From Flavobacteriales bacterium (GTDB taxonomy: Bacteria; Bacteroidota; Bacteroidia; Flavobacteriales_F; PHOS-HE28): 64,000 bases of DNA. Each line of letters starts with the position of its first letter. Positions within the stretch are counted from its first letter, which is position 1. The DNA is taken from the NCBI GenBank assembly GCA_046306055.1, contig JBKDXR010000058.1, forward strand, positions 110,792-174,791, in the 5' to 3' direction. Both the position numbers and the translations under genes were made by a program. Positions 5,426 through 64,000 of the stretch are shown piece by piece. The notes below the pieces were generated by a model, which was not told the origin of the DNA, searched no databases, and saw only the letters and a program-made list of their open reading frames with translations.

Positions 5426-5782
5426 ATGAACCTCCTTCTCGCCCTTGTGACCGCATTGGTCCTGCCTCTGCAGGCCTTCACCGTTCCCGTGTTGCCGGAG
5501 GCCCCTGCCAATTCCGACATTGCGGTGGTACTTCATATCGAAGGCCTGGATGATGCCATGCTTGCCCGATTGGCCAAGCAGATCGGCCGTGATAAGAACA
5601 CCACCATCGAGTATTCCTGCGTGTCCTCTGGTGTGGTGGTACTGCGGTTCACGGACGCGCCGGTGAACGAGCGTGCCGATGTCATCACCATGGTCCGCAG
5701 GCAGCTTACGGCCGCGGGGATCGAGCAGGGCGTGGAGTTCCTGCACATTCATATCGAGGCCAAGGGTCCGGGCAAGTGTTGA
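5426..5782 (+). CDS. Hypothetical small secreted protein
   Basis: 118 aa, N-terminal signal peptide MNLLLALVTALVLPLQA. No recognisable domain. Confidence 0.45.
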   Translation: MNLLLALVTALVLPLQAFTVPVLPEAPANSDIAVVLHIEGLDDAMLARLAKQIGRDKNTTIEYSCVSSGVVVLRFTDAPVNERADVITMVRRQLTAAGIEQGVEFLHIHIEAKGPGKC

Positions 5783-5832
5783 CCGGAACGGGGCGTGCTG
5801 GGGCGTTCGCTCCCGATACCTTTGTGCTCCGC

Positions 5833-7419
5833 ATGCAGCCGCACTGTGTCCCTTACGCCGCCACGCACCGTTTCTCCCCGTTGGTGCTGGACTACCTGGC
5901 GGATGGTGAGCGTACACGGGAGTTCCACGCTGGCCGGCCCGATCTGGCCGGTCTGGTGAAAGCCGCTTCCCAGCGGCAGTTCGACCCGGCCGCTCGCGAG
6001 GCGCTTGTGCGCGTTCTGCGGTCCCAATATGATGGCCTTCCGGCGGAAACAGCGGTGGAGCAGAGCCTTCGAGATCTCGCCAGGCCGGATGCGTTAACGG
6101 TCACCACCGGCCACCAATTGGTGCTGTTCGGCGGACCGTTATATGTGCCGTTCAAGCTGCTCAATACCGTTCGCGTGGCACGTGAACTGCAGGCTGCCAC
6201 GGGCCGTCCGGTAGTTCCGGTGTTCTGGATGGCCACCGAGGACCACGACCGTGCCGAGGTCGATCATACCTACTTCAATGACCATATGCTGCAATGGCCC
6301 GGCCAGGCAGGTGGTGCGGTCGGTCGTATGCCCCTGCATGGCATAGGACCCGCGGTGGAGGAGGCCATTGCGCACCTTGGCGAAGGAGCGCATGCCCTTG
6401 AAATGGCTTCGCTTCTCCGGGAACACTACCGGCCCGAGCGGACCTTGGCAGAGGCCACACGCGGCTTTGTGCATGCGCTCTTCGGTCGCTTCGGCATCCT
6501 GGTCCTGGATGCGGATGCACCTGAGCTGAAGCGCTTGTTCGCACCGGTGGTGAAGGAGGAGTTGCTGAACCAGGTCGCGGAAAGAAGCGTCTCCTTTGCC
6601 AATGCCCGGTTATCGGAACAGTTCACCGTGCAGGCCCATGCCCGCGAGATCAACCTCTTCCACCTTCGGCCAGGTCATCGCTCACGCATCGTGCTGGATG
6701 GGGATGCCTTCCGTGTACTGGACGGCGGTCCTTCGTTCACCCTGGACGAACTGCTGGCCGAGGTGGACGCCCATCCCGAGCGCTTCTCTCCGAACGTGCT
6801 GCTCCGTCCGGTATACCAGGAGGTGGTACTGCCCAATGTGGCTTATGTGGGCGGAGGTGGTGAGCTGGCCTACTGGCTGCAACTGAAATGGATCTTCCAG
6901 GCGCTGCAGGTCCCCATGCCACGTGTGTTGCTGCGGACCAGTGCAGGATTCATCAGCACGAAGCGCTTGCACCAATGGCAGGCCTTGGGGCTGGCCACCG
7001 AGGACCTCTTTACTGATCAGTCACCCCTGATGGCCCGCGTGGCCACTGACCTTTCCACGTTCAGCACGGACCTGGCCGGTGAACGGGAGCGGTTGACCGC
7101 GTTTTATGATGGCCTGTTGGCCAAGGCCAGTGCGGCCGACCCGACCCTGCGAGGCGCCGTGGAAGCACGTCGGGCCAGTGCACTGAAAGGGGTGGACCGC
7201 CTTGAGCAAAGCATGGTGCGCGCCGCCAAGCGTCAGCAGGCAACGGCCATGGACCGGATGCGCAGCGCCCATGCAGAGCTGTTCCCCGGTGGCGGTCTGC
7301 AGGAACGTCGGGCCAATATCCTGCCCATGCTGGCCGCGCGTGGCGTTGGGTTCCTGGACGAGCTCTTGGAACGCCTCGATCCCTTGAGCCCCTGCTTCAC
7401 CCTCTTCGAGGAGGCCTGA
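5833..7419 (+). CDS. bshC: Bacillithiol biosynthesis cysteine-adding enzyme BshC (putative)
   Basis: 528 aa from the Met at residue 20 of ORF 5776..7419. N-terminal LVLDYL...; Rossmann-like TTGHQLVLFGGPLYVPFKLLNTV...WMATEDHD signature and a C-terminal coiled-coil, as in BshC (YllA family). Confidence 0.65.
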   Translation: MQPHCVPYAATHRFSPLVLDYLADGERTREFHAGRPDLAGLVKAASQRQFDPAAREALVRVLRSQYDGLPAETAVEQSLRDLARPDALTVTTGHQLVLFGGPLYVPFKLLNTVRVARELQAATGRPVVPVFWMATEDHDRAEVDHTYFNDHMLQWPGQAGGAVGRMPLHGIGPAVEEAIAHLGEGAHALEMASLLREHYRPERTLAEATRGFVHALFGRFGILVLDADAPELKRLFAPVVKEELLNQVAERSVSFANARLSEQFTVQAHAREINLFHLRPGHRSRIVLDGDAFRVLDGGPSFTLDELLAEVDAHPERFSPNVLLRPVYQEVVLPNVAYVGGGGELAYWLQLKWIFQALQVPMPRVLLRTSAGFISTKRLHQWQALGLATEDLFTDQSPLMARVATDLSTFSTDLAGERERLTAFYDGLLAKASAADPTLRGAVEARRASALKGVDRLEQSMVRAAKRQQATAMDRMRSAHAELFPGGGLQERRANILPMLAARGVGFLDELLERLDPLSPCFTLFEEA

Positions 7420-7452
7420 TCCGCTGTTCGTTCCCGCTCCCGACAGGGCTGC

Positions 7453-7460
7453 TACTTTTG
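7453..7460 (+). promoter_or_regulatory. Bacteroidota-type -7 promoter box TACTTTTG ~26 nt upstream of the guaA GTG start
   Basis: Matches TAnnTTTG. Supports the Bacteroidota assignment. Confidence 0.4.
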
Positions 7461-7485
7461 AGGCGTCATCGGATCATCTGTACCG

Positions 7486-9033
7486 GTGGCTACCCATCCC
7501 GTGGCCGGTTCCATCCTTATTCTCGATCATGGCTCCCAGTACACCCAGCTCATTGCCAGGCGTGTTCGTGAGCTGAACGTGTATTGCGAGATCCATCCCT
7601 TCAGCAAGGCCCAGCAGTTCGTTGGCGATCCCACCGTCAAGGGCGTCATCCTGAGCGGTAGTCCCAGCAGTGTGCACGATGTCAATGCGCCTGATACCGA
7701 CCTTACGGGTATCATGGGACGGGTGCCCGTGCTCGGTGTTTGCTACGGTGCCCAGCTCTTGGCCAAACGCGCCGGCGCTCCGGTTGAACGTTCCACGGTG
7801 CGGGAATACGGCCGCGCCCACCTCACCACCATTGGCGACAGCCACCTGTTCGACGGCATCCAGGCCGGCACACAGGTGTGGATGAGCCACGGCGACAGCA
7901 TCACCGCGCCCAGCGAGGCCATGGATGTGATCGCCAGTACCAAGGACGTGCCCGTGGCCGCCTACCGGCTGCGCGATCACATGACCTTTGCCGTACAGTT
8001 CCATCCCGAGGTCTACCACACCACGGACGGGCTGCAATTGCTGCACAACTTCGTGATCGGCATTTGTGGCTGTGAAGGTGACTGGACCCCGCACGCCTTC
8101 GTTGAGCACACCGTGGAGCGTCTGCAACAACAGCTCGGGCAGGACCAGGTGGTGCTGGCCTTGAGCGGGGGAGTGGATAGTTCCGTTGCCGCCCTGCTTC
8201 TGGACCGCGCGATCGGCGACCGTCTCCATTGCATCTTCGTGGACAACGGTCTGTTGCGCAAGGATGAGTACACCCGTGTGCTGGAGAGCTATCGCCACCT
8301 GGGCCTCAACATCACCGGGGTGGATGCCAAAGCGGAGTTCTATGCGGCCCTGACGGGATTGGAGGAGCCCGAGGCCAAGCGCAAGGCCATCGGCCGGACC
8401 TTCATCGAGGTGTTCGACCGGGAGGCGCACCGCATCAAGGACGTGAAGTGGCTGGGCCAGGGCACCATCTACCCCGATGTGATCGAGAGCGTGAGCGTGA
8501 ACGGCCCCAGCGTCACCATCAAAAGCCATCACAACGTAGGCGGGCTTCCGGACCGCATGAAGCTTCAAGTGGTTGAGCCTCTGCGCCTGCTCTTCAAGGA
8601 CGAAGTGCGACGGGTGGGCCGCGAGATGGGCCTCGATCCCAACATCCTGGGCCGTCACCCTTTCCCCGGACCGGGCCTGGCCATCCGTATCCTCGGTGAG
8701 ATCACCCAAGAAAAAGTGGCCCTGCTCCAGGAGGTGGATCACATCTTCATCCAAGGTCTCCGGGACGAAGGGCTCTACGACCAGGTCTGGCAGGCCGGCG
8801 CCATCCTGCTTCCCGTGCGCAGCGTGGGGGTCATGGGCGACGAACGGACCTACGAGAACGCCGTGGCCCTGCGTGCAGTGACCAGCACCGATGGCATGAC
8901 GGCCGACTGGTGTCACCTGCCGTACGAGTTCCTGGCACGGATCTCGAACAGCATCATCAACCGGGTGCGCGGCGTGAACCGAGTGGTGTACGATATCAGC
9001 TCCAAGCCCCCGGCCACCATCGAATGGGAATGA
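7486..9033 (+). CDS. guaA: GMP synthase (glutamine-hydrolysing)
   Basis: GTG start. GATase-1 domain ([30 protein letters not shown]), an ATP-PPase SGGVDSSV motif, and a C-terminal dimerisation domain ending ...PPATIEWE. Confidence 0.95.
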
Positions 9034-17801: not shown

Positions 17802-18491
17802 ATGTCCGCTCCGAACGACCACCTTGATCTGTACTTCCAATGGGAGGTACGCTCCTGGTCGCGGGCCTTTCCGCTCTGGCACCGCACCTTGGCGGCTATT
17901 CCCAAGGAACGATGCTGGGCGCTCGCCTTGGGTGAACGGGATGGAGGACTGAGCTTGATGCTCGCCGATCACGGATTCACTACGGTCTGTAGCGATCTGC
18001 ACGGACCCACGGACCGGGCCAAAGCGCTTCACCGGACCTTCGGCTGGGACGAAGCCATTACCTACGAAGCCATCGACGCCACAGCGATACCCAAGCCGGA
18101 CGCGAGCTTCGATGTGGTGGTCTTCAAGAGCATGATCGGGGCGCTGGGAAGCAAGGAGAAGCAGGCACTGGCCATCCGCGAAATGCACCGTGTCCTAAGA
18201 CCGGGAGGTGTGTTGCTCTTCGCGGAGAACCTTCATGGCAGTCCGTTGCACATTTGGCTGCGCAAGCGCTTCGTGGCCTGGGACCACTACTGGCGCTACC
18301 TCGATCCAGTGAAGGACCGCGACCTGTTCGCACCCTTCGCCCATTTGGAGGACCACACCACCGGCGTGGTGGCGAACCTGGGCCGTTCGGAAGGCCAACG
18401 AGACCTGTTGGCCCGGTTCGATGCGCTCATCCAACCGCTCATTCCGCCCACACAACGCACCATCTGGTATGGCGTGGCGGTGAAAGGCTGA
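17802..18491 (+). CDS. Class I SAM-dependent methyltransferase
   Basis: Motif I-like ALALGERDGGLSLMLADHGF, FDVVVF, LRPGGVLLF. Confidence 0.6.
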   Translation: MSAPNDHLDLYFQWEVRSWSRAFPLWHRTLAAIPKERCWALALGERDGGLSLMLADHGFTTVCSDLHGPTDRAKALHRTFGWDEAITYEAIDATAIPKPDASFDVVVFKSMIGALGSKEKQALAIREMHRVLRPGGVLLFAENLHGSPLHIWLRKRFVAWDHYWRYLDPVKDRDLFAPFAHLEDHTTGVVANLGRSEGQRDLLARFDALIQPLIPPTQRTIWYGVAVKG

Positions 18492-18581
18492 TCGTGGAAA
18501 AGCCCGGAACCCTGGGGCAGAAGGACTTCCCGTGCCGGTCTACCTTCGCCATCCGAGGCGCGATCCAGCGTCCATCGCCAA

Positions 18582-19565
18582 ATGTCAGACCGCGCGTCCC
18601 TTCCCGTACTGGTCACCGGTGGCTCCGGGTTCATTGGCAGCCATGTGTGCGATGCACTGTTGGAACGAGGCATGGCCGTGCGTTGCATGGACAACTTCGC
18701 GACCAGTAAGCGGAGCAACATCGCCCATCTGGAAGGTCGATCGGACTTTGTGCTCGTGGAAGGTGACATTCGCGATGCCGATGCCTGTCGCAGGGCGATG
18801 GTCGGCGTTCGGGCGGTGGTGCACTTGGCCGCATTGGGTTCCGTACCTCGGTCCATTGCCGATCCGCTCGCTTCGCATGCCACCAACCTCACCGGTTTCC
18901 TGAACGTGTTGGACGCGGCCCGGCTGGAAGGGGTGGACCGCTTCGTGTACGCATCCAGTTCCAGTGTTTACGGGAACTCCAAGGAACTGCCCAAGCGAGA
19001 ACCGAACACCGGCGATCCGCTCTCGCCCTATGCCGTTACCAAAGCGGGCAACGAGCTCTATGCGCAGTTGTACACGCGGCTGCACGGCATGAATACCATT
19101 GGGCTGCGCTTCTTCAATGTGTTCGGCGAACGGCAGGACCCCGAAGGACCTTATGCGGCTGCCATTCCGCGGTTCATCAAGGCCTTTCTAAAGCACGAGG
19201 CCCCACAAGTGCATGGCGATGGACAGCAATCGCGCGACTTCACCTACGTGGGCAATGCCGTGATGGCCGTGTTAGCGGCGTTGGACAGCACCGATCCACG
19301 AGCCGTTGGGCAGGTGTTCAATGTGGCCTATGGTGATCGCACTACGCTGTTGCAGCTGATCAACGCTCTGCGGGAGGCATTGGCCTTGACCGATGCGGCC
19401 ATTGGTAGTGTGGGCGTGCAGCATGTCGCCGAACGCCCGGGCGACATCCGCGATTCGCTCTCCGATATCAGCAAAGCGCGCGAACTGCTGGGCTATGCTC
19501 CACAGTTCGACCTGAAGGCAGGTCTTGATCGCGCGGTGCCTTGGTATGTCCGGAACTGGGGCTGA
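18582..19565 (+). CDS. NAD-dependent UDP-sugar 4-epimerase (WbpP/WbgU-like UDP-GlcNAc 4-epimerase family)
   Basis: VLVTGGSGFIGSH, VYASSSSVYGNSKELP, PLSPYAVTK (the SDR YxxxK motif). The pattern matches WbpP-type epimerases. Confidence 0.8.
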   Translation: MSDRASLPVLVTGGSGFIGSHVCDALLERGMAVRCMDNFATSKRSNIAHLEGRSDFVLVEGDIRDADACRRAMVGVRAVVHLAALGSVPRSIADPLASHATNLTGFLNVLDAARLEGVDRFVYASSSSVYGNSKELPKREPNTGDPLSPYAVTKAGNELYAQLYTRLHGMNTIGLRFFNVFGERQDPEGPYAAAIPRFIKAFLKHEAPQVHGDGQQSRDFTYVGNAVMAVLAALDSTDPRAVGQVFNVAYGDRTTLLQLINALREALALTDAAIGSVGVQHVAERPGDIRDSLSDISKARELLGYAPQFDLKAGLDRAVPWYVRNWG

Positions 19566-20868
19566 GGCTGCCCAGTTGGTCCACCCGCAGGAATACCTTC
19601 CAGTAGCGTGCCTTGTCCATGTCCTCCCAATGGATCTGGTAGTAGCGTGCCTGGTAGGTCTGTACTTGACAAAGCACGGTCAATAGCACCGCCAGCGTCA
19701 TCACCACTTTGCGCACCCTGGCGCTGGACGAGCTGAGCAACAGGCCGAACAGCAGCGCGAACAGTCCGAGGAATTCCACCAGCACCCGGCTGCCGAAGCT
19801 GCCGCCGTACCACCAGTTCCACCACGAGGAGAGCACGTACACGAGCAGGGTGAAGAACCCGGCCCAAGCCAGTGCCGCCCAGCGATGCGCCCGGTACAAG
19901 GGGACCAGTCCGAGCATGCTCAGCAACAGCAGTGGCGTGTAAACGAATGCGCCCTTCTTGTAGCTGAACAGAAAGTCGAACAGCGCCGGTGCCGTCCATT
20001 GGAATCCCTCCTCGCCGTAGGAGTACACGAGCCATTCGCCCGTGGCCCATTTGTAGTACCCCAGCTGCAAGAACGGGATGCCCAAGGCCAGTACCGCAGC
20101 AACTGAAATTGCAACGGGGTTAAGGAACAGTGAACGGAACAGCGGACCAACACGATGCCCCTGTGGCACCAATGCCGCCAAGGCCAGTACCACGATGCCG
20201 TTCACTGGACGTACGAGCACGATGAGGCCCCAAAGCGCTGCCAGCTTCCACAGGTCCCTGGTGCGCGCACCGAGCAGCACCGAACGGCCTTTCCAGAGAA
20301 AGAGGCTCATGAGCCCGAAGCTGTACGCATGGCTCATACCCGGTGCCACCACGGCGTAGTAGAAGAGGTTGGTGCCGAACGTGAACGCCAACAGAGTGAA
20401 CGCGATGTGAGGGTCGCGCACGCCGTAGCTGGCCAGCAGCTGGACCAAGGCCCAGCAACCCAGCAGCACCCACGCAACGGCCGCCAGGTTGACGGCCACC
20501 ACGTAGGGTTTGGCGTAGCCATCGTTCAAACCGCCAGTTACGGTCGTGGTCAAGTGGGCCACCAAAAAGAAGGGGGCCTGGACCACGGCGGTGCCCATGA
20601 AGTACTTCGGGATATGGCGGCCGTTATGCGCGGAGCGATAGTCGTAGAAGAGGTCGGGGTTGTAGTAGGTCTCCCGCTCGATCCGGTCGAAGAAGCCGAT
20701 ATTGGGGTCGTGGTGGATGACGATCGCCGGGAGGTAGGCATAGTATCCCTTCGCGTCGGCCTGCATCACCGTGCGCCAGTGCTCTTTGCCCCAATTGATG
20801 TTGGAACTGCTGATCAGCAGCAGCAGCCCGATGATCGCCAGGGCCAACGTGCTCCAGGGGGATCTCAT
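19468..20868 (-). CDS. Polytopic membrane protein, putative GT-C-fold glycosyl/aminosugar transferase (ArnT/PMT-like)
   Basis: About 11 predicted TM helices with an early periplasmic-loop acidic motif (ADAKGYYAY). The start at the Met whose ATG overlaps the WD40 gene stop (ATGA) indicates translational coupling. The family assignment is an inference. Confidence 0.5.
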   Translation of the reverse strand: MRSPWSTLALAIIGLLLLISSSNINWGKEHWRTVMQADAKGYYAYLPAIVIHHDPNIGFFDRIERETYYNPDLFYDYRSAHNGRHIPKYFMGTAVVQAPFFLVAHLTTTVTGGLNDGYAKPYVVAVNLAAVAWVLLGCWALVQLLASYGVRDPHIAFTLLAFTFGTNLFYYAVVAPGMSHAYSFGLMSLFLWKGRSVLLGARTRDLWKLAALWGLIVLVRPVNGIVVLALAALVPQGHRVGPLFRSLFLNPVAISVAAVLALGIPFLQLGYYKWATGEWLVYSYGEEGFQWTAPALFDFLFSYKKGAFVYTPLLLLSMLGLVPLYRAHRWAALAWAGFFTLLVYVLSSWWNWWYGGSFGSRVLVEFLGLFALLFGLLLSSSSARVRKVVMTLAVLLTVLCQVQTYQARYYQIHWEDMDKARYWKVFLRVDQLGSLSPSSGHTKAPRDQDLPSGRTVEHSPAVRALC

Positions 20869-21806
20869 GGCTTCACCTCCCATCTCTTGATCATGCGGTC
20901 GTCCGAGGCGGTGAGCAATGCGACCGGGGTCCAGAGTACGGCGTTCACGCTGTGGGTGTGACCATGCACTGAACGGTCCAAGCGTTGAATGGGCTCAAGC
21001 GTATTCGCGTCCCATAGCTTCACGGTCTTGTCGCGGCTCACGCTGCAAAAGCGCTGTCCGTCAGGGTTGAACACCAGGCGGTAAATGGATCCCTTGTGTG
21101 CCGGTATGCCGAGCAACGGCCTGAACCCTTCCGTTGCGTGCCAGCTGCGCAGGTACCCGTCCTTGCCTCCGCTGATGAGCACGGGCTTGTGCGGATGGAA
21201 GGCAATGCTGGTGGCCCCTCCAGGCTGTTCGAACAGGGTGGGATGTGCTGCTATGGTCGCCTTTTCGTTGAAATAGGTGGTATCCAGAATGCGAACCTGG
21301 CCATCGCCACAGGCTACTGCCAGCAGTTCATCCTGGGTGTCCACGGCCAGGTCGCGCAGTTTCTCTTCGCACAGGGGGAAATGACGCACCAGTTCCAATG
21401 TCGCGCCGTTGCCCGTGTTCGTTCGCCAGATGCTCAGCGTACCATCGCCACCGGCGCAGGCGATCCTGTTATCGCTGAAAGCCACCATGCGGAAGATCCC
21501 CTTCCGGTGTACGGTGAAGCGGTGGAGCTCGCGCCCGTGCACGGCATCGATCACGAACAGGTCGCCGCCTTCGGTGCCGATCAACAGGAGCGTGCCCCTG
21601 CGCAACAGGCTGAAGACCGCCTGTCCCACGTTCACCAGCACATGACCCGCCTCCGGGTCATGAAGCTTCCAGCGCACCACCAGTCCATCACCTGAACCTG
21701 AAAGGAACGTGTCGCCATCCCCCTCGGAGGCCAGCGCATAAACGGGCCCACGATGACCGGTGAACGTGGCTCCCACCAACTGGTCCGTTGACCGCTCCAT
21801 GGGCAA
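20865..21806 (-). CDS. WD40-repeat beta-propeller protein
   Basis: Repeated GH...SGS.DG.V..W WD motifs (FTGHRGPVYALAS...SGSGDGLVVRWKL and others). Confidence 0.75.
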   Translation of the reverse strand: MPMERSTDQLVGATFTGHRGPVYALASEGDGDTFLSGSGDGLVVRWKLHDPEAGHVLVNVGQAVFSLLRRGTLLLIGTEGGDLFVIDAVHGRELHRFTVHRKGIFRMVAFSDNRIACAGGDGTLSIWRTNTGNGATLELVRHFPLCEEKLRDLAVDTQDELLAVACGDGQVRILDTTYFNEKATIAAHPTLFEQPGGATSIAFHPHKPVLISGGKDGYLRSWHATEGFRPLLGIPAHKGSIYRLVFNPDGQRFCSVSRDKTVKLWDANTLEPIQRLDRSVHGHTHSVNAVLWTPVALLTASDDRMIKRWEVKP

Positions 21807-21810
21807 TAGG

Positions 21811-22632
21811 TCAGTCCGTACCGAGTTCCTTTTCCAAGCGCCGCATCAGCTCCAATCGCTTCTCCCGTGTGTGCTCTCTGAGGCGGAAGGTATGCCCCTC
21901 GCTTTGGGGCTGAACGGTCGGCCGTAGGTCACCCTGAACGAAGTGTTCGATGACCCACGGATAGTGCTCTACGACCATCAGATTGTTGAGCGCACGTAAG
22001 TGGAAGGGGTCCGTTGGCCAGCCCGTTTCCGCAGGTTTCTGGAACAGGATCTGGCCCGTATCCACGCCGGTGTCCACGAGGTGAATGGTGATCCCAGCGC
22101 TGGTGGTATCGTTGTTCAGGCATTGCCAGAACTCGGATCGCGTGCCGCGGTAAGCGGGTAGCAGGGAAGTATGGGCGTTCAGTGTCCCCTTGGTGGGGAC
22201 TGCCAGCAGGGGCGCCTTCAGGATCTTCGTGCCGTACACCACGAGCACATCGGGCCGTGCGTCGCGGATGCGCTCTATGGTCTCAGGGGTGTTCAGGTCC
22301 GTGGTCTCCACGCGCTCCACCTCGGGCCATTCGGCGCGTAGTCCTTGCGTGGATGCGCTCTCCATGAAATAGTGATCGGCCTTGTTGGCCAGCCGTTCCT
22401 CAAAAGCAAGCAAACGCCGCATCTCGGGGGTCAGGCGGACGCGATGCATCAGCCGGTCCACCATGCGGTCACCGACCACGGAACGCACGCGGTTCGACCA
22501 TTTGCTGTAGGGTCTGGCACCGGTATCCACCTGTTGCACGATCAAGGTCAGGCCAGTGGTGTTCGCCAGCCGGTCGGCCAGCACCCGTGCCACGGGCTGG
22601 TCGCTGGTCAGCAGGACGATCCGCGGGTTCAT
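21811..22632 (-). CDS. Formyltransferase (Formyl_trans_N; ArnA-N / sugar N-formyltransferase-like)
   Basis: NAHTSLLPAYRG plus a downstream D, as in the N10-formyl-THF-dependent transferases (Fmt/ArnA/WlaRD). Confidence 0.8.
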   Translation of the reverse strand: MNPRIVLLTSDQPVARVLADRLANTTGLTLIVQQVDTGARPYSKWSNRVRSVVGDRMVDRLMHRVRLTPEMRRLLAFEERLANKADHYFMESASTQGLRAEWPEVERVETTDLNTPETIERIRDARPDVLVVYGTKILKAPLLAVPTKGTLNAHTSLLPAYRGTRSEFWQCLNNDTTSAGITIHLVDTGVDTGQILFQKPAETGWPTDPFHLRALNNLMVVEHYPWVIEHFVQGDLRPTVQPQSEGHTFRLREHTREKRLELMRRLEKELGTD

Positions 22633-23852
22633 GCTTCAGGGAATTGAAGGGTGAACGCGTGATCCCCGTGCCGAAGGATGGAATGGGGCACCGCACCTTT
22701 GGTCCCATGCACTGTGATGCCTTGTGGCACCGCCCCTTTGATCGTGAAGGAATGTCCGGCCAGTTCGTGCGGTCCTACGGTGTCGAAGGCCAGTCCATCC
22801 GCCGTGAACGTGAATGCAGCGCCTTGGATGGTCAGGTGGTCACGAAGCACCAGGTAGTCCAGCAGGCGACCGAGCGAGGAAAGCATCAGCTTGCCGTCCC
22901 GGTGCAGGCCGGCCACATGTTCAAGCGACTTCCGTGTTGATGCGGGAACATGCTCCGCATCGTTCTCGTGCCCGGCCTTGCGTTTGCCCAGATGGGTGTA
23001 GGCCATGCAGATCCCGCCTTGCGCCACCAACCGGTCCATCATCGCGGGGGCCAGCAGCACCCCAAGGCCTTGGATGTCGGCCAGTTCCCAACGGCCATAG
23101 CGGGGGAACACATAGCCCAGGCTGCCATCCAGGAACCGGTGTACGCGATAGGCCTGGTTGCCCTGGAACTGGTCCCTGAACGCCTTACCGAGCCCGAAGG
23201 TGTCGCCCACCTTGTGCTTCATCCAGTCCAAGGTGCCGCGTCTGCCTGATCCGGTGCGCTCCAGATGGTATTGTCGCAAGGAGAGTTCGCGGTCCTGGCC
23301 CAGTACCGAGGTGATGGTGCCGTCCCAGAAGTAGCGAACGCCGGCCTTGCGGATCAGGTCCAGCGTGTAGTACTGGTTGGCGTAGGTGTAGCCCGATGCA
23401 TCCTTGAACTCGGGAATGCCCCCGAACTTGTGGTTGTGCAGCAGGTTTCCAATGAACATGCTATGGTCCACCCAAACACGGGGGCGGAAGTTCATCTGCT
23501 CCAAGGTCCTCAGATGCGCCTCGGCATCGCTCCGGTCGAACCCACGTGTACCGGCGAACATGAAGTCGCCCCATGTGTGGATCGTATCGTGCGGGTGGCT
23601 TCCCAGCACTTCGGGATGCCCGTGCAGGTCCACCTGATCGGGCAACTGGATGTTATACGAACGGATGAAGACCGAATCGGAAAAGGGGAGGCCCAGTTCC
23701 TGCCAGATCAACCGGTCCAGTTCCTTCCAATCCGCATGTCGGGTGTTGTCCGGGTCGCTGCTCAGGGTCAACCACGCGGACCATGGGTGCGGAAGCGCCT
23801 GAACACGGCCATCCCGCACGCGTTGCTTCACTGGAGTGTTCCCTGCGATCAT
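22629..23852 (-). CDS. Hypothetical protein, possibly divergent CE4-like deacetylase/deformylase
   Basis: ORF 22629..23903. Weak NodB-like motif spacing (WLTLSSDPD; HGHPEVLGSHPH). Its ATG overlaps the stop of the formyltransferase gene by 4 nt. The assignment is weak. Confidence 0.45.
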   Translation of the reverse strand: MIAGNTPVKQRVRDGRVQALPHPWSAWLTLSSDPDNTRHADWKELDRLIWQELGLPFSDSVFIRSYNIQLPDQVDLHGHPEVLGSHPHDTIHTWGDFMFAGTRGFDRSDAEAHLRTLEQMNFRPRVWVDHSMFIGNLLHNHKFGGIPEFKDASGYTYANQYYTLDLIRKAGVRYFWDGTITSVLGQDRELSLRQYHLERTGSGRRGTLDWMKHKVGDTFGLGKAFRDQFQGNQAYRVHRFLDGSLGYVFPRYGRWELADIQGLGVLLAPAMMDRLVAQGGICMAYTHLGKRKAGHENDAEHVPASTRKSLEHVAGLHRDGKLMLSSLGRLLDYLVLRDHLTIQGAAFTFTADGLAFDTVGPHELAGHSFTIKGAVPQGITVHGTKGAVPHSILRHGDHAFTLQFPEA

Positions 23853-23945
23853 CGATCCTCCGCCACGGGCCCTCTTCGCACCGTCGGACGGGCAAGATAA
23901 CATCGCACCGGGAAGCGGAACCTCTCAATGGTCAGCCTTGAGCGG

Positions 23946-24740
23946 CTATTCCCCGGGCCAGCGGCGGCGGTCGGTCCAAAGGAAGGTCCATTCCGGAGTG
24001 TACAGGCGCTCGTCAGCACCCACGAAGTACCATGCCCCGGCCTCGGGATGGCGCAGGTTCTTGAGCACGTGCAGCTGCTGGGCGGGCATGTAGCTCTGCG
24101 CCAGGAGCATGGCCGTGCTGCCATCCGATCTTGTCGAAACATCAACCACCAGCACTGCATGGCCCGGGCTTCCGCCATGTATGTACACGTCGCCAGGCTT
24201 CACCGCATCGGTCATCGGCACCAGTTCACGCGAGAGCGAGAGGGTGCCCGCATAGGTGAACACCATGTTCAGGTAGCGGAGCAGCTGCTCGTGCGAACGG
24301 TCCGGCACCGCACCAGCATACCAATTGCAGGTGTTGCCGCTCACACGGATGCGCTCGCCCCTGGCCCAGCGGTCCCACCGAGCCTCGAACCCATTGGTGA
24401 ACCGGAACGTGATCTCGCGGTCCCTGCCGCTGGCATACAGGTATTCGGTCCGCAGGCGCATCACGGCATCGGCGCATTGTTGCAGGTCCCTGTCGCCCAC
24501 GCTCACGTCGAGTACGGCCGCATGTACGTCCTGCCGGCCTTTGGCGCTGCCGTTGTACAGTGAAACGCCGGTGCCGGTGGGCAGTAGATGAAGGTTGCGT
24601 AGAAAGTTCCCGAACGACGTTGGGGGAACTGGTACCCTTGCGAACCCGCTCGGGACCGCGAACCTATCGACGATCCGGTCCTTCGTGGGGGCAGCGGTCA
24701 GGCTAAGCAGGAGCGGCAGGAGCAAGGCGAAGGCGCGCAT
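23946..24740 (-). CDS. Hypothetical secreted protein (DUF4846-like)
   Basis: Signal peptide MRAFALLLPLLLSLTAAP. A conserved-looking Bacteroidota hypothetical. Confidence 0.5.
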   Translation of the reverse strand: MRAFALLLPLLLSLTAAPTKDRIVDRFAVPSGFARVPVPPTSFGNFLRNLHLLPTGTGVSLYNGSAKGRQDVHAAVLDVSVGDRDLQQCADAVMRLRTEYLYASGRDREITFRFTNGFEARWDRWARGERIRVSGNTCNWYAGAVPDRSHEQLLRYLNMVFTYAGTLSLSRELVPMTDAVKPGDVYIHGGSPGHAVLVVDVSTRSDGSTAMLLAQSYMPAQQLHVLKNLRHPEAGAWYFVGADERLYTPEWTFLWTDRRRWPGE

Positions 24741-24777
24741 GTCCTTGGGAATGCACGCCATCGCCCGAGGTAACGGA

Positions 24778-26253
24778 TCAGGCCTGCGCCGAGGCCTTTT
24801 GCGGTGTGTAGCCGAACAGCCGATTATCCTTGATCATATTGTCCACGTAGGGCGGCACCATCTCCTCCCAGCCGTCCTTGCCGCTTCGGATCATGTCCAG
24901 CACTTGCTTGCTGAAGATGTGCAGCACGTTGGGGTCGAAGTTGGTGATGTCCACCAACCGTTTGTTGAACAGGAGGTAATCGTACAAGGGCCTCAACCGC
25001 GGATGCACCGGCATGTTCACGGTGGTCATGATCTGCTCGCTGGCGCTGGTGCGGCTCGGGTACACGTAGATCTTCAGGTCGCGGTGGAAGAGGATGCCGA
25101 ACGCCTCCAGCACACCTCCGTTGAGGTCGCGGTAGTAGCGCTCGTCGAACACTTCCACCAGGTTGTTCACTCCCATGATCAGGCCCATGCGCGCCTTGGT
25201 GTAGCGGCTGAAGTACTCCACCAGCTTGTAGTATTCCTGGTAGTTGCTGATCAATACGGTCTGCCCCAGGGAGCACAGGATGTCTGCCCGGTCAATGAAG
25301 TCCTTCTCGTCCACATCGCCCGTATCGCTCTTCAGGTTGTTCAGGGTGATCTCGAAGAGCACTTGCAGGTTCTGACGGTCCACACGCTGTTCCTTGATGA
25401 ACATGTTGTAGCCGTTCATGATCATGTCGATGTTCACCTTGGTCACCGGACGGAAACTACCGCGGATGGCGAGGATGTTCTTCTTGTAGAGCATCTCGCT
25501 GGCCTGCAGGTTCTGGCCATCGGGACCGAAGAGCACGGCGTCGGTGTATCCGCGCTTCACCAGTTGCAGGCTGAGCAGTCGGTTGTCCACCTGAGCGAAC
25601 GCCGGACCGTTCATCTGGATCATGTCGATCTCCAACACGTGCCGGCTCACGTTGTCGTAGAGCGCGGTCATGATCTCCTGCGGATCGGCATGGTTGAACA
25701 TGCATCCATGCATCAGGTTCACGCCCAGCACGCCAATGCTCTCCTGTTGCAGGCTCATGTCGGGATCATGCAGTCGGAAGTGCAGGATCACATCACTGGT
25801 GGGCTGGTCCGGTGCGGTCTGGAAACGGACACCCACCCACCCGTGGCCACTGTGGGGCCGCTCGAAGGTGCTGGTGCCCACCGTGTTCGCATACGTGAAG
25901 AAACGCTTCGTGGGGTGGTCCTTGCGCGAAAGGCGGTCCGTGATCAGCCCATACTCATGGCGGAGCATGTTCTTCAGGCGGCTCTCACACACGAAACGGT
26001 TGCCGGGCTCGGGCCCGTAAATGGCATTGCTGAAGTCCTTGTCGTAGGCGCTCATGGCCTTCGCTATGGTCTGCGAAGCGCCGCCTGCACGGAAGAAATG
26101 CCGCACCGTTTCCTGTCCGGCCCCGATCTCGGCGAAGGTGCCGTAGAGGTCCGCGTTCATGTTGATGCGACGGGCCTTCTGGGCCGGGCTCAGCGGAACG
26201 CGATGGGGGTCCTGCACGATCATGATGGTCCTTGTCTGCGTTGAAGGGAGCAA
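24778..26253 (-). CDS. Conserved hypothetical protein (491 aa), cytoplasmic
   Basis: Protein-like composition throughout (LYGTFAEIGAGQETVRHFF...). ORF 24595..26244(+) is its antisense shadow. No family recognised. Confidence 0.6.
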   Translation of the reverse strand: MLPSTQTRTIMIVQDPHRVPLSPAQKARRINMNADLYGTFAEIGAGQETVRHFFRAGGASQTIAKAMSAYDKDFSNAIYGPEPGNRFVCESRLKNMLRHEYGLITDRLSRKDHPTKRFFTYANTVGTSTFERPHSGHGWVGVRFQTAPDQPTSDVILHFRLHDPDMSLQQESIGVLGVNLMHGCMFNHADPQEIMTALYDNVSRHVLEIDMIQMNGPAFAQVDNRLLSLQLVKRGYTDAVLFGPDGQNLQASEMLYKKNILAIRGSFRPVTKVNIDMIMNGYNMFIKEQRVDRQNLQVLFEITLNNLKSDTGDVDEKDFIDRADILCSLGQTVLISNYQEYYKLVEYFSRYTKARMGLIMGVNNLVEVFDERYYRDLNGGVLEAFGILFHRDLKIYVYPSRTSASEQIMTTVNMPVHPRLRPLYDYLLFNKRLVDITNFDPNVLHIFSKQVLDMIRSGKDGWEEMVPPYVDNMIKDNRLFGYTPQKASAQA

Positions 26254-26324
26254 AGGTAGCCCCTTCGCTCAGGCTGAACATGAAGAACGTCAGGCAAGGC
26301 CTGCATGTTCTTCACTAACGGATG

Positions 26325-38134: not shown

Positions 38135-38296
38135 AGCCTGTTTGGGATCTCCGCATTTGGCTCCGCTATGGTCTTTGGCGACCATACTTCGTTGCGGAAG
38201 CCGTCACGTAGCTTCGGCTATGCTCCGGTTCCGCGCCTCGTCTGGTCGCCAGATCCTCATCGCTCGCTTCAAAAGGAGAGATCCCAAACAGGCTCT
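38133..38296. mobile_element. MITE-like element: 19-bp perfect terminal inverted repeats (AGAGCCTGTTTGGGATCTC) flanking a ~125-nt structured core
   Basis: The left arm starts 1 nt inside the bla stop codon (38133-38151). The right arm is at 38278-38296 and is the exact reverse complement; the match extends to ~24 bp with 2 mismatches. The core contains nested palindromes (GGCGACCA/TGGTCGCC; GCGGAAGCCG/CGGTTCCGC). Confidence 0.35.
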
Positions 38297-38710
38297 TAGG
38301 AGATGCCCGGCGTCTTAAACTTCCGCAACAGGTCCAGGAAACCCAGCACCACCAACGCCACGGCGGCGCCAAGGAGCGTATCGTACAGCCTGCCGCTCAT
38401 GGTGCTCGCAGATTCCGGCTCCTGGCCGAAGGTGGCCAGCGTCTGGGCCCATGGGCGTTCCGATGGCCAATGCCGCTCGCAGTCCGGCACCCCAGCGCCA
38501 TTCACCTTGTTGCAGGCGCATGGCGTGGTGTACCGTGCGTCGGGTGCGGGGTATGCGCAAGCGGGGTCGCATGGGGGCGCGAAGTTGGGGTGCGTGGCCG
38601 CTTGGGTCCGTCGATCATCGCCCCCGTTCGGACGATAAGGGCGGCCTTACTGCCGAAGTTCACGAACAACGCCACCCGGCCCCCGTAACCACCACCAAAC
38701 CCCTGCACCC

Positions 38711-59215: not shown

Positions 59216-60295
59216 ATGATCGATGGAAAACCCATCAAGGGCAGAGGGGCTGGAGGCCAGGTGCGGAACCGCTTCGCGCAGCGCCATTATGCGGACGTGC
59301 ACTGGGAGGCCATTGACGAGCCGATCGACGAACATGGGCAGGCCACGAAGTACATGGAGACCCATGCGCGGACCATCGTGAACCGTGTGGATTCGCCGGA
59401 CCTGCCGTTCCGATGGAGCCTCAATCCGTACCAAGGCTGCGAGCACGGTTGCAGTTACTGTTATGCCCGGCCTACCCACGAGTACTGGGGTTACGGCGCC
59501 GGACTCGATTTTGAGCGGGTGGTGCTTCTGAAGCGCAATGCACCAGAGTTATTGGAAAAGACCCTGCGTGGCCCCCAATGGCAGGTGGATCCCATTGTGC
59601 TCTCCGGTGCCACCGACCCGTACCAGCCCATTGAGCGGAAGGAGAGGCTCACGCGTGCCCTGCTCGAGGTGCTACGGCGCTACAAGCATCCCGCCGGGCT
59701 GATCACCAAGAACGCTTTGGTGCTGCGTGACGTTGACCTTCTGCGCGAAATGGCGGCCGAGCGACTGGTCTCCGTGGCCATCAGCCTCACTACGCTCAAC
59801 GAGGACCTCCGGCGCCGCTTGGAACCGCGCACCAGCAGTGGCTTGAACCGCTTGAAGACCATCGAGGCCCTTCGGCAGGCCGGAGTGCCGGTATTCGTGA
59901 TGATCGCCCCCATCATTCCCGCGCTGAACGAGCCCGAAGTACCGCTGTTGTTGCGGTCCGCGGCGGATGCCGGTGCACTCGGCGCGGGCTACACCGTATT
60001 GCGCACCAATGGCGCGGTGGGCGAGGTGTTCGAGGCCTGGTTGCACACCCATTATCCGGACCGCGCGGCCAAGATCATGGCCCAGACAAAGGCCTTGCAT
60101 GGTGGTCGCATGAGCGATACCGAGGCCGGGAGACGCATGCGTGGTGAAGGTGTGTTCGCCACCAACATCGCGAGGCTGTTCGAGGTGATGAAGCGCCGCT
60201 ATTTCGAGGGGCGGTCGGTGCCCGAACTGGATCGTACGAAGTTCAGCCCGCCACCTCAGGGGCAGTTGGACCTGTTCGGGCCAGCGGCCAGGTGA
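59216..60295 (+). CDS. Radical SAM protein, SplB-like (spore photoproduct lyase / PA0069 family)
   Basis: CEHGCSYCYA (CxxxCxxC) near the N-terminus; ~360 aa with an SplB-like C-terminal region. Confidence 0.8.
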   Translation: MIDGKPIKGRGAGGQVRNRFAQRHYADVHWEAIDEPIDEHGQATKYMETHARTIVNRVDSPDLPFRWSLNPYQGCEHGCSYCYARPTHEYWGYGAGLDFERVVLLKRNAPELLEKTLRGPQWQVDPIVLSGATDPYQPIERKERLTRALLEVLRRYKHPAGLITKNALVLRDVDLLREMAAERLVSVAISLTTLNEDLRRRLEPRTSSGLNRLKTIEALRQAGVPVFVMIAPIIPALNEPEVPLLLRSAADAGALGAGYTVLRTNGAVGEVFEAWLHTHYPDRAAKIMAQTKALHGGRMSDTEAGRRMRGEGVFATNIARLFEVMKRRYFEGRSVPELDRTKFSPPPQGQLDLFGPAAR

Positions 60296-61862: not shown

Positions 61863-61978
61863 AGCCGGTGATCGCTGACGGAGGTCCAGAATGTGTCGAT
61901 GAAATAGCCTTTACTGCCGACCGGATATTGACATCGCTCGACGAACGAAGTAGCTTGACGCCCCTTAACCAAGCCGTC

Positions 61979-64000
61979 ATGTACTTCAAGAAGCCGTTCT
62001 GGATCATCATGGGCGAGCGCCCCAAGGCCTTCATTCGGATGATCCTGTCCGGTATGGCGGCGGTGCTGGTCCTTTCAACGAACGGACAGACCGTGCCTGC
62101 GGGATTCAGCGATGCGCTGGTGATGGGTGGCTGGAGCGAACCGGTTGGCGCTACCTGGGATGCGAACGGCCGGATGTACGTATGGGAGAAACGCGGGATG
62201 GTGTGGATCGTGGAGAACGGCGTGCGGTTGCCGAACCCGTTGATAGACATCAGTGCGGAGGTGGGGAACTGGCGCGATCACGGATGCCTTGGATTCGCCC
62301 TCGATCCTGCCTTTCTCACGAACGGACGCATCTACCTGATGTATGCCGTGGACCGGCATCACTTGATGCAGTTCGGCAGCCCCAACTACAGTGCCACCAC
62401 GAACGAGTATTATGCGGCCACCATCATGCGCATCACGCGCTACACCGCTGTTGGCCCGAACTTCAATACAGTGGACCCCGCAAGCCGGTTCGTGCTGGTG
62501 GGTGAAACACGCCAGACCGGTATCCCCCTGCTTCATGAATCGCACAGCACGGGTTCGTTGATGTTCGGGACCGACGGCACGCTGCTGGCCACAACGGGCG
62601 ATGGTGCCAGCTACAATGTGGTGGATGCCGGCAACAGCGGGGATACCTATTGGTCACAGGCGCTCACCGATGGTATCATCCGCCCCGCCGAGAACGTGGG
62701 TGCGTTCAGGTCCCAATTGGTGGATTGCCACAATGGAAAAGTGCTGCGCATCGACCCCAATACAGGCAATGGGGTTCCGAGCAATCCCTGGTACGACCCC
62801 AGTGCACCACGGGCCCCGGGCTCCCGGGTATGGGGGCTTGGTCTGCGCAATCCGTACAGATGCACGTTCAAACCCGGTAGTGGCAGTGCCGACCCCGCAG
62901 CGGGTGATCCGGGCACGGTGTTCATTGGCGATGTGCAATGGAATGTTTGGGAGGAACTGGATGTGTGTTATGAAGGAGGGATGAACTTCGGCTGGCCGAT
63001 GTACGAGGGAATGGATCCGATCAATGGATACATGGCGGCCCTCACCACGAACCTGGATGTCTCCAATCCGCTGTACGACGGAGTGGGGTGTACGCTTCAA
63101 TACCTGCGTTTCCAGGACCTGTTGAAGCAGGACACCCCCATACACCTGAACGGGCACCCGAACCCATGCAACAGCGCGGTGCAGATCCCCAACAGCATCA
63201 CGAAGTTCTACCATGCACGGCCGGCCATTGACTGGCGCCACGGGAACCAGTCGCGCTGTGGTGCTTTCACCGGAAACACGGCGGTGACCTACGACCTTGA
63301 TTCGCCGCTATCACCTGTGCCAGGCCCTCGTTTCGGTGGCTATGCGGCGCTTGCAGGTCCATGGATGAGCGGGCAGAACCTGCCGCTAGGCTACCAGAAC
63401 AGTTCGTTCCATGGCGATTATGCCGGTGGCTGGATCCGTCGTTTCATGTTCAATGAGCAGGATGCGCCGGTAAGCGTTCATGATTTCGCCACGGGGCTCG
63501 GGGCCATTACCTGGATCGGGGCCGGGCCGGATGGTTGCGTGTGGTACATCAGCTACAGCAGCGCCCAACTGCGCCGCATCTGTTACACGCTGGCCGTGAA
63601 CCTGCCACCCGTGGCCGTGGCCACTCAAAGCGCACAGTTTGGACCGGGGCCGCTGGCCGTTTCGTTCAATGGAGCGGGTAGCAGCGACCCCGAGAACGGT
63701 GCCATCACCTACAGCTGGAACTTCGGCGATGGTTCACCGGTGTCCAATGCTGTTGCTCCTTCGCACGTGTTCAATGCGCCGCCCGGTGTACCCACGAGCT
63801 ACACGGTAACACTCACGGTGACCGACAACCAGGGCCAGACCAATTCCACCACCTTGTTGGTCTCGGTGAACAACACGCCACCATCGGTCCAGATCACGAG
63901 CATTCCTGCGGATGGCTACTTCCCCGTGGGCGTGGATACGGTCTATCAGCTTCAGGCGGCAGTAGGCGATCTGGAGCATGGTCCCGGCCAGCTGACCTAT
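61979..64000 (+). CDS. PQQ-dependent sugar dehydrogenase-like (GSDH beta-propeller) fused to a PKD domain; 3' end beyond window
   Basis: No stop before the window end, so it is absent from the ORF track. Signal peptide-like MILSGMAAVLVLS. GSDH-like region (MYVWEKRGMVWIV...GRIYLMYA...HSTGSLMFGTDGTLLATTGDG...HNGKVLRIDPNTG) and a PKD motif TYSWNFGDGSP...YTVTLTVTDNQG. Confidence 0.6.
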   Translation, partial: MYFKKPFWIIMGERPKAFIRMILSGMAAVLVLSTNGQTVPAGFSDALVMGGWSEPVGATWDANGRMYVWEKRGMVWIVENGVRLPNPLIDISAEVGNWRDHGCLGFALDPAFLTNGRIYLMYAVDRHHLMQFGSPNYSATTNEYYAATIMRITRYTAVGPNFNTVDPASRFVLVGETRQTGIPLLHESHSTGSLMFGTDGTLLATTGDGASYNVVDAGNSGDTYWSQALTDGIIRPAENVGAFRSQLVDCHNGKVLRIDPNTGNGVPSNPWYDPSAPRAPGSRVWGLGLRNPYRCTFKPGSGSADPAAGDPGTVFIGDVQWNVWEELDVCYEGGMNFGWPMYEGMDPINGYMAALTTNLDVSNPLYDGVGCTLQYLRFQDLLKQDTPIHLNGHPNPCNSAVQIPNSITKFYHARPAIDWRHGNQSRCGAFTGNTAVTYDLDSPLSPVPGPRFGGYAALAGPWMSGQNLPLGYQNSSFHGDYAGGWIRRFMFNEQDAPVSVHDFATGLGAITWIGAGPDGCVWYISYSSAQLRRICYTLAVNLPPVAVATQSAQFGPGPLAVSFNGAGSSDPENGAITYSWNFGDGSPVSNAVAPSHVFNAPPGVPTSYTVTLTVTDNQGQTNSTTLLVSVNNTPPSVQITSIPADGYFPVGVDTVYQLQAAVGDLEHGPGQLTY

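Follow-up and report, generated by a model that had tools for sequence, protein, structure and literature searches.

Within a 64,000-nt window of contig JBKDXR010000058.1 (assembly GCA_046306055.1, a Flavobacteriales bacterium), four consecutive open reading frames occupy the minus strand (22629–23903, 21811–22632, 20865–21806 and 19468–20883), as a preliminary description of this DNA had reported. They encode a predicted sugar de-N-acetylase, here called p424 (22629–23852); a stand-alone N10-formyl-THF-type formyltransferase of 273 aa, FT (21811–22632); a 311-aa WD40 β-propeller protein without a signal peptide (20865–21800); and a 466-aa polytopic membrane glycosyltransferase of GT-C fold (19468–20868). 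Two plus-strand genes converge on this run, again in line with the earlier account: a WbpP/WbgU/TviC-type UDP-HexNAc(A) C4-epimerase of the SDR type (18582–19565) and a class I SAM-dependent methyltransferase (17802–18491; PF08241, 7e-12). On the other side, a same-strand backbone gene encoding a DUF4846 protein (23946–24761; PF16138, 6.8e-91) adjoins p424 across a 93-nt gap. The first gene of the co-oriented run (24778–26223, minus strand) encodes a 481-aa protein that is 82–98% identical across Flavobacteriales loci and returned no match in Pfam, NCBIfam or the PDB. Rfam and tRNA scans of the whole window gave no matches.

The four genes had been thought to be coupled by ATGA overlaps at every junction, which holds for two of the three: p424/FT (GCATGAAC) and WD40/membrane protein (CCATGAGA). 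A 10-nt gap separates the FT stop codon (TGA, 21813–21811) from the WD40 ATG at 21800, and the alternative TTG start at 21806 still leaves no overlap, making FT/WD40 the sole non-overlapping junction, located between the two units proposed below. The 424-aa length first assigned to the leading protein reflects the open reading frame to 23903; a 407-aa product from ATG 23852 is most likely, because GGAGGA precedes this codon, homologues measure ~405–415 aa and external gene calls agree. The membrane protein starts at ATG 20868, giving its 466 aa; its C-terminal ~30 residues are encoded by 98 nt antisense to the epimerase 3′ end, are modelled as disordered and are missing from ~433-aa homologues. 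A motif scan placed TACCTTTG, a Bacteroidota-type −7 promoter motif, at 26251–26258 on the minus strand, where it is unique from that position to the end of the GT-C gene and hints weakly at a six-gene transcript; matches to this motif do not exceed chance in the window as a whole, and five of the six lie just upstream of genes. A sigma-70 promoter scan of the region found none.

The p424 hydrolase and its formyltransferase partner

p424 is a predicted cytoplasmic hydrolase. The weak CE4/NodB-like motif spacing first seen in it did not survive sequence methods: Pfam searches at E ≤ 5 over 46 family members gave no match, PF01522 included; neither p424 itself nor its family is recognised by any Pfam or NCBIfam model; a PDB sequence search with the family profile was empty; hhalign of that profile against E. 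coli ArnD gave a probability below 1%; and the CE4 motifs MT1–MT5 (TFDD, H[ST]xxH, RxPY, DxxDW, LxH) were not matched in the family. The resemblance stands at the level of fold only. Comparison of structure models revealed a CE4-superfamily fold, a distorted (β/α) deacetylase barrel, with ArnD among the structural neighbours recovered. Residues analogous to the CE4 motifs are present in rearranged form (SxD33-P-D35, H92, D129-H130, R251, H287), and invariant Asp/His/His/His plus Asp and Arg fall at strand C-termini in the secondary structure of the model. As far as alignment and model indicate, this invariant composition matches that of a CE4 metal site with its base and acid residues; conservation and placement on the strands make Asp35-His92-His130 the predicted metal site, with Asp33 as putative base and His287 as putative acid. 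p424 would thereby share with the CE4/NodB-homology de-N-acetylases a deacetylase-type barrel and an Asp-His-His plus Asp/His catalytic composition, but it differs in lacking PF01522, in carrying its two predicted metal histidines on different strands rather than in one HxxxH motif, in an extra C-terminal β domain (residues ~340–407), in its cytoplasmic location and in having a formyltransferase as partner. The family comprises 787 representative clusters at E ≤ 1e-3, and its members are called "hypothetical protein" in every source that names them; a literature search on the family or on a deacetylase–formyltransferase route found nothing relevant.

FT proved to be the stand-alone formyltransferase described earlier, with its NAHTSLLPAYRG motif at residues 152–163 and with a Formyl_trans_N domain (PF00551, E = 3e-18). 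The Asn-His-Asp triad (N152/H154/D191) is invariant among 31 homologues and the HxSLLPxxRG motif is conserved, and the enzyme is catalytically intact. Its best PDB sequence matches are sugar N-formyltransferases and ArnA; to the core of the ArnA N-domain it is 34% identical. The closest solved relatives — GDP-perosamine N-formyltransferase (5vyt), WlaRD and PseJ — share the triad and the motif. Their substrates are 3- or 4-amino dideoxy sugars produced by aminotransferases; to our knowledge, all characterised sugar N-formyltransferases act on amines installed by such enzymes. The window FT subfamily, in contrast, is paired with a deacetylase-like enzyme without a nearby aminotransferase, and is set apart by a ~55-residue N-terminal insertion, an EFW motif and the absence of a C-terminal domain.

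Genomic distribution of the two gene pairs

p424 and FT are adjacent on the same strand at 32 of 46 informative genome loci, spread over Bacteroidota, Acidobacteriota (including Thermoanaerobaculia) and Myxococcota; at a Gemmatimonadota locus, FT lies ~5.5 kb from p424 on the opposite strand. In one protein (P0427) the two are fused, and its FT domain and the window FT align over their full lengths. Together, cross-phylum adjacency and fusion argue for a shared substrate. Neighbourhoods of the p424 family are polysaccharide clusters with GT2, GT4, Wzx and Acyl_transf_3 genes. About 30% of p424 loci have no adjacent FT, and there the family takes other partners: three FT-less members are fused to GT4 (P0381, P0393, P0406), a p424-like domain in P0425 is fused to a SAM methyltransferase, and neighbours include a NodU-like carbamoyltransferase with an acyl-AMP ligase, N-acetyltransferases and AsnB-like amidotransferases. 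The window methyltransferase was considered as a counterpart of the P0425 methyltransferase domain and rejected, since the two share only generic class-I similarity. Such variety of partners is what one would expect of an enzyme that exposes an amine for re-decoration, and the FT-less contexts, with the GT4 and methyltransferase fusions, favour a de-N-acetylase that uncovers an amine over an enzyme devoted to deformylation. Exposure of an amine followed by its re-decoration is familiar from NodB with NodA/NodS in Nod factor synthesis, and from LpxC–LpxD, PIG-A/PIG-L and BshA/BshB; p424 resembles these pathways in its genomic coupling to amine-acting enzymes (FT, methyltransferase, N-acyl and carbamoyl transferases) and to GT4. 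A DegT-type aminotransferase was found near p424 at 2 of 52 loci by tblastn with few queries, a search that divergent aminotransferases or GT2s can escape; this scarcity suggests that the amine does not come from transamination, and is in keeping with an amine at C2 that derives from GlcNAc.

The WD40 protein carries the repeated units of a β-propeller, as had been claimed (PF00400, E = 2.5e-37), with many propeller models spanning residues 12–312. It has 560 homologues at E ≤ 1e-20, the best 120 of which are ~300–360 aa long, and all taxon-named proteins among those 120 come from Flavobacteriales MAGs. WD40 belongs to the resident Flavobacteriales backbone of this site: it occurs there without p424 and FT, either alone (L060, L061) or with GT-C (L062), and in L060 the DUF4846 gene directly precedes it. 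In backbone loci without p424–FT, the epimerase gene comes after WD40/GT-C, and the methyltransferase is syntenic with WD40 in L060 and L061. The epimerase itself is of the WbpP/WbgU type (PDB 1sb8 WbpP, E = 1.7e-90; WbgU, 3e-89; NCBIfam TviC, 4.5e-83).

The membrane protein was described as a GT-C-like transferase with ~11 transmembrane segments, and modelling bears this out: it has about 11–12 helices and a polytopic GT-C fold whose first extracytoplasmic loop carries one or more conserved acidic residues, and ArnT is among the structural neighbours recovered. It belongs to no Pfam family, and the only NCBIfam hit is a weak match to the Leptospira LA_3751/3752 putative glycosyltransferase family; a PDB search with the GT-C profile found nothing, and hhalign of the family profile against E. 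coli ArnT gave a probability below 1%. Elsewhere the family is mostly a solitary gene. The idea that a GT-C enzyme always follows p424–FT was rejected, because the multi-TM proteins after p424–FT in Acidobacteriota (L025) and Cyclobacteriaceae (L028) are not homologues of the window GT-C and other membrane neighbours are mixed: Pfam matches for ten further TM-predicted proteins nearby included MFS, ABC, Wzx, DsbD and one PMT_2.

Candidate pathways

We give an even chance to a reading in which the four genes form two separable units in one co-oriented, probably co-transcribed run, with p424–FT editing HexNAc(A). The modularity is visible in the backbone loci L060, L061 and L062 and in the non-overlapping FT/WD40 junction. 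p424 and FT would form a horizontally distributed cassette, complete in itself, that edits N-acyl groups on the sugars of cell-surface polysaccharides. As a CE4-fold metallohydrolase, p424 would de-N-acetylate a 2-acetamido sugar, likely a UDP-GlcNAc-derived HexNAc or HexNAc-uronic acid, acting on it either as a nucleotide sugar or once it has been newly loaded on a lipid carrier; FT, drawing formate from N10-formyl-tetrahydrofolate, would then re-acylate the freed amine to yield a 2-formamido sugar. We infer both this substrate and the deacetylate-then-formylate order. A natural sugar of this class, the 2-formamido uronic acid D-GalNFoA, occurs in the Pseudomonas aeruginosa O6 O-antigen (PMC4773840, PMC11706664). 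The second unit, WD40 and GT-C with the convergent epimerase and methyltransferase, would be a resident Flavobacteriales module whose GT-C may pass a sugar from polyprenyl phosphate to an acceptor in the periplasm.

The preliminary description had instead proposed a single Arn-like pathway joining formyltransferase, deformylase and GT-C. FT would transiently N-formylate a nucleotide aminosugar, a GT2 encoded elsewhere would load it onto undecaprenyl phosphate, p424 would deformylate it as ArnD does, and GT-C would deliver it to an envelope acceptor such as lipid A, WD40 having an accessory role. There is a likeness: the run combines a PF00551 formyltransferase of the ArnA N-terminal type with a hydrolase of CE4-superfamily fold and a GT-C membrane transferase, ArnD and ArnT emerge as structural neighbours of the last two, and ArnD-type deformylase activity would be just as compatible chemically with the p424 fold. 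The proposal nevertheless fails on co-occurrence. The four-gene order recurs, in 10 genome loci, but in related Flavobacteriales only; outside the Flavobacteriales backbone, none of 27 p424–FT loci has WD40 or GT-C alongside, and within it WD40 and GT-C occur without p424–FT. GT-C is thus no evolutionary partner of the FT–hydrolase pair, and the components are not co-inherited as one system. Among the window genes scanned (Pfam and external gene calls) there is no ArnB or ArnC, as had been noticed at the outset, nor ArnE/F or an ArnA-C decarboxylase: the SDR is WbpP/TviC-type, giving the different, HexNAc-based rather than UDP-GlcA-derived sugar supply already pointed out. The scarcity of DegT-type aminotransferases, the alternative partners of p424 at FT-less loci and the lack of any sequence-level relation of p424 and GT-C to ArnD or ArnT weigh in the same direction, and we regard the Arn-like pathway as quite unlikely. 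A fold-for-fold resemblance within one operon that fails in this way counsels caution in neighbourhood inference.

The genes could also be neighbours without a shared pathway, p424 being another barrel hydrolase (for example a GH57-like glycosidase/transferase or a YdjC/LamB-like enzyme) acting on a polysaccharide intermediate, FT acting on an amine made elsewhere, and the run reflecting transcriptional convenience. We judge this unlikely: the adjacency and fusion of p424 and FT point to one substrate, and the Asp/His-rich invariant set (D35, H92, H130, H287) is typical of metal amidohydrolases, unlike the Glu/Asp catalytic pair of GH57.

The editing reading turns the p424–FT pairing and fusion into a concrete hypothesis for N-formyl groups on the hexosamine C2 amine; if confirmed, it would lead to better annotation of O-antigen, capsule and EPS clusters across several phyla and extend the known carbohydrate esterases by a new deacetylase family. 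To judge from translational coupling and the single promoter motif, the cell probably expresses both units together, and a functional link to GT-C is thus possible. A fuller version, in which p424–FT supplies the missing route to 2-formamido sugars and, in this Flavobacteriales lineage, the product is handed over, loaded on polyprenyl phosphate, for delivery by the WD40-coupled GT-C to an envelope acceptor, strikes us as a long shot; it would amount to a functional Arn analogue assembled from unrelated families, in which a cytoplasmic WD40 scaffold joins soluble enzymes to a membrane transferase. The closest systems for the GT-C itself are ArnT and the GT-C enzymes without a large periplasmic domain (ALG12, ALG3, PimE and GPI mannosyltransferases), from all of which it differs in being translationally coupled, in some Flavobacteriales, to a cytoplasmic WD40 protein.

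Gene layout and conservation of the four-gene run

The preliminary description had proposed a single Arn-like formyl-aminosugar operon with an embedded WD40 protein. As it had stated, ORF calls place four consecutive minus-strand ORFs, encoding p424 (22629-23903; 424 aa, a predicted CE4-superfamily-fold hydrolase), a formyltransferase (FT, 21811-22632), a WD40 beta-propeller (20865-21806) and a polytopic membrane glycosyltransferase (GT-C, 19468-20883), which converge on plus-strand genes for an SDR epimerase (18582-19565) and a methyltransferase (17802-18491), in a window of about 61% G+C. It had also placed ATGA overlaps at every junction; sequence reading bore this out for p424/FT and WD40/GT-C but not for FT/WD40, where 10 nt separate the FT TGA from the WD40 ATG at 21800. 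From the sequence, the most likely p424 start is the ATG at 23852, which gives 407 rather than 424 aa, is preceded by GGAGGA and agrees with homologues and external gene calls. The GT-C gene starts at 20868 and encodes 466 aa, and its 3′ end overlaps the convergent epimerase gene by 98 nt (19468-19565), leaving ~30 GT-C codons antisense to the epimerase. Because these last ~30 residues are missing from ~433-aa homologues and are modelled as disordered, the C-terminal extension looks like read-through following loss of an ancestral stop.

We sought p424 relatives in one genome per species, obtaining 51 loci, and compared all window proteins with them by tblastn, counting primarily loci with at least 900 nt downstream. 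FT lay directly downstream in 32 of these 46 loci (33 with L038), whereas WD40 was found in 19 and GT-C in 10. All of the latter occurred among the 19 loci on the Flavobacteriales backbone, a syntenic chromosomal site marked by a conserved 481-aa gene upstream (FT, 16; WD40, 19; GT-C, 10). Outside this synteny (n=27), FT was retained directly downstream in 16-17 loci, and both WD40 and GT-C in 0/27, contrary to the idea of an operon conserved as a unit beyond Flavobacteriales. Adjacent FT genes occur in loci of Bacteroidota, of Acidobacteriota (Thermoanaerobaculia among them) and of Myxococcota; a Gemmatimonadota locus, L042, has its FT on the strand opposite p424, at a distance of about 5.5 kb. 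Three Flavobacteriales loci (L013, L014, L017) carry WD40 directly after p424, with no FT within 10 kb.

The reciprocal arrangement also exists. Without p424-FT, the order is 481-aa gene, DUF4846, WD40 and methyltransferase in L060, and WD40, epimerase, then methyltransferase, RNase Y and ZapA in L061, while L062 reproduces the window synteny with WD40 and GT-C (ATGA overlap), a convergent epimerase, RNase Y, ZapA and an M23 peptidase. Since each part occurs without the other, the "operon" is a p424-FT cassette flanked by DUF4846 on one side and a resident WD40(-GT-C) unit on the other, and WD40 is a backbone gene rather than a cassette component. The seam between the two is the one junction without translational coupling.

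The p424 and formyltransferase proteins

Searching 1.84 billion representatives with a profile recovered 787 p424 relatives at E<=1e-3. Pfam, NCBIfam and PDB sequence searches gave no hit for p424, even when 46 family members were scanned at E<=5. Its structural model (46-sequence alignment) reached a pLDDT of 95.7 and gave no significant Foldseek match, so the relationship is a distant one. In 83 family members, some as little as about 20% identical, Pro23, Asp35, His92, His130 and His287 are invariant and Asp33, Asp89, Arg107, Arg251 and Tyr285 nearly so; in the model, the conserved residues come after barrel strands. Their composition matches the CE4 metal triad (Asp-His-His) plus base, acid and arginine, although the two histidines sit on different strands and PF01522 is unmatched. 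The Asp/His-rich invariant set speaks against a non-amidase, for example GH57-like, identity, which we disfavor. With neither signal peptide nor transmembrane segment in its sequence, p424 is predicted to be cytoplasmic, as is the folate-dependent FT.

FT (273 aa) had been called a stand-alone formyltransferase, as its PF00551 match (E=3e-18) confirms. ArnA, Fmt and PurN models match it weakly; among solved structures, those closest in sequence are sugar N-formyltransferases (GDP-perosamine N-formyltransferase 5vyt, 1.4e-11) and ArnA. Asn152, His154 and Asp191 do not vary among 31 homologues. In L004, the closest genome relative (p424 95% identical), the FT match is split between two reading frames (5560-6379; residues 1-168 and 139-273), the result of either a frameshift in the gene or a faulty assembly.

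Neighborhoods, fusions and proposed function

Distant p424 genes sit in polysaccharide clusters: Acyl_transf_3, p424, FT and an 8-TM protein before a GT2/GT4 run in Cyclobacteriaceae; Wzx, DegT, GT4, two N-acetyltransferase-family genes, p424 and GT2, with PMT_2 further on, in Desulfobacter; MBOAT, p424 and Wzx in Marinilabiliaceae; and GT2, p424, an Asn-synthase-like gene and GT4 in Chlorobiota. Two Gammaproteobacteria MAGs (L039, 8094-13864; L044, 8145-13810) have a NodU/CmcH-type carbamoyltransferase upstream of p424 and, downstream, a conserved ~338-aa protein (no Pfam match when scanned in L039) and an acyl-AMP ligase, in what looks like another amine-decoration cassette. The p424 domain is also fused to Formyl_trans_N (P0427, whose FT part aligns end to end with the window FT, E=4e-19), GT4 (P0381, P0393, P0406), a SAM methyltransferase (P0425) and TPR (P0394). 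DegT-type aminotransferases lie near p424 in only 2/52 loci. Together, these contexts, fusions and scarce aminotransferases suggest that p424 behaves as an amine-exposing enzyme.

We propose that p424 would expose a sugar amine that varying partners then re-decorate, most commonly by formylation. By de-N-acetylating ubiquitous HexNAc, the cassette would produce its own amine and need no aminotransferase, which would account for p424 and FT moving together as a self-sufficient pair. In the Arn-like alternative, FT formylates and p424 deformylates an aminosugar; this is feasible chemically and as consistent with the FT-p424 fusion as our proposal is, but it leaves FT-less p424 contexts unexplained and does not account for the GT4 and methyltransferase fusions, the scarcity of aminotransferases or the independence of GT-C from the cassette. 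No equivalents of ArnB, ArnC, ArnE/F or ArnA-C were found among the window genes scanned. The preliminary observation was largely real and its components well judged, down to the folds (triad-like residues after barrel strands in p424, Asp38/Asp54 in a GT-C loop), whereas their integration into one Arn-like pathway is only partly supported.

We favor N-acetyl to N-formyl editing of surface glycans as the probable role of the cassette. Deacetylation followed by re-acylation or decoration has precedents in NodB then NodA/NodS and LpxC then LpxD, and in the GPI, mycothiol and bacillithiol pathways a deacetylase acts after a GT4. The window encodes a BshC homologue about 15 kb from the locus (5776-7419, plus; PF10079, E=2.9e-103), and bacillithiol biosynthesis also has a GT4 and de-N-acetylase step; we saw no link between this homologue and p424. 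An AsnB-like amidotransferase is encoded no more than about 2.5 kb from p424 in L027, L036, L037 and L049; in L042 the distance is about 9.5 kb, and this locus also unites GT4, FT, p424 and a WbpP-like epimerase (49% identity). Such frequent amidotransferase and WbpP/TviC-type epimerase neighbors point to HexNAc-uronic acid chemistry; a 2-formamido uronic acid, D-GalNFoA, occurs in the P. aeruginosa O6 O-antigen (PMC4773840, PMC11706664). It is defensible to regard p424 as an uncharacterised CE4-superfamily family tightly coupled across phyla to an FT subfamily, its cassette here adjoining a Flavobacteriales WD40-GT-C unit.

The resident backbone and candidate promoters

The 311-aa WD40 protein is, as annotated, a WD40 propeller. 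At E<=1e-20 there are 560 homologues; the best 120 are ~300-360 aa, and every one with a taxon name is a Flavobacteriales MAG. This ~300-aa cytoplasmic protein is kept at the same chromosomal site in the window (20865-21800), L060, L061 and L062, and in some Flavobacteriales genomes is translationally coupled (ATGA) to GT-C; to our knowledge, a WD40 partner of a GT-C enzyme has not previously been described. At least 909 proteins belong to the GT-C family, whose gene stands alone in Cryomorpha, Lentimicrobium and one further Bacteroidota genome; Asp38 and Asp54, in the first loop (TM1-TM2), are invariant. The epimerase is of WbpP/WbgU/TviC type. Flavobacteriales genomes share the 481-aa protein (24778-26223, minus) at 82-98% identity, far above its neighbors, and searches of Pfam, NCBIfam and PDB sequences found no match for it.

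No tRNA or Rfam match was found anywhere in the window, and no ORF passed the codon-position G+C filter in 7420-8909, 38135-38710, 59480-60242 and 61863-64000. The 481-aa gene is the first of the co-oriented run, and about 25 nt upstream of it lies TACCTTTG (26251-26258), a Bacteroidota-type -7 motif. As this is its only minus-strand match down to the GT-C gene end, all six co-oriented genes may conceivably share one transcript. Matches to TAnnTTTG total no more than expected by chance in the window; five of the six (7453, 12035, 15501, 26258, 52479) sit in short intergenic gaps immediately ahead of genes and are likely real Bacteroidota promoters.
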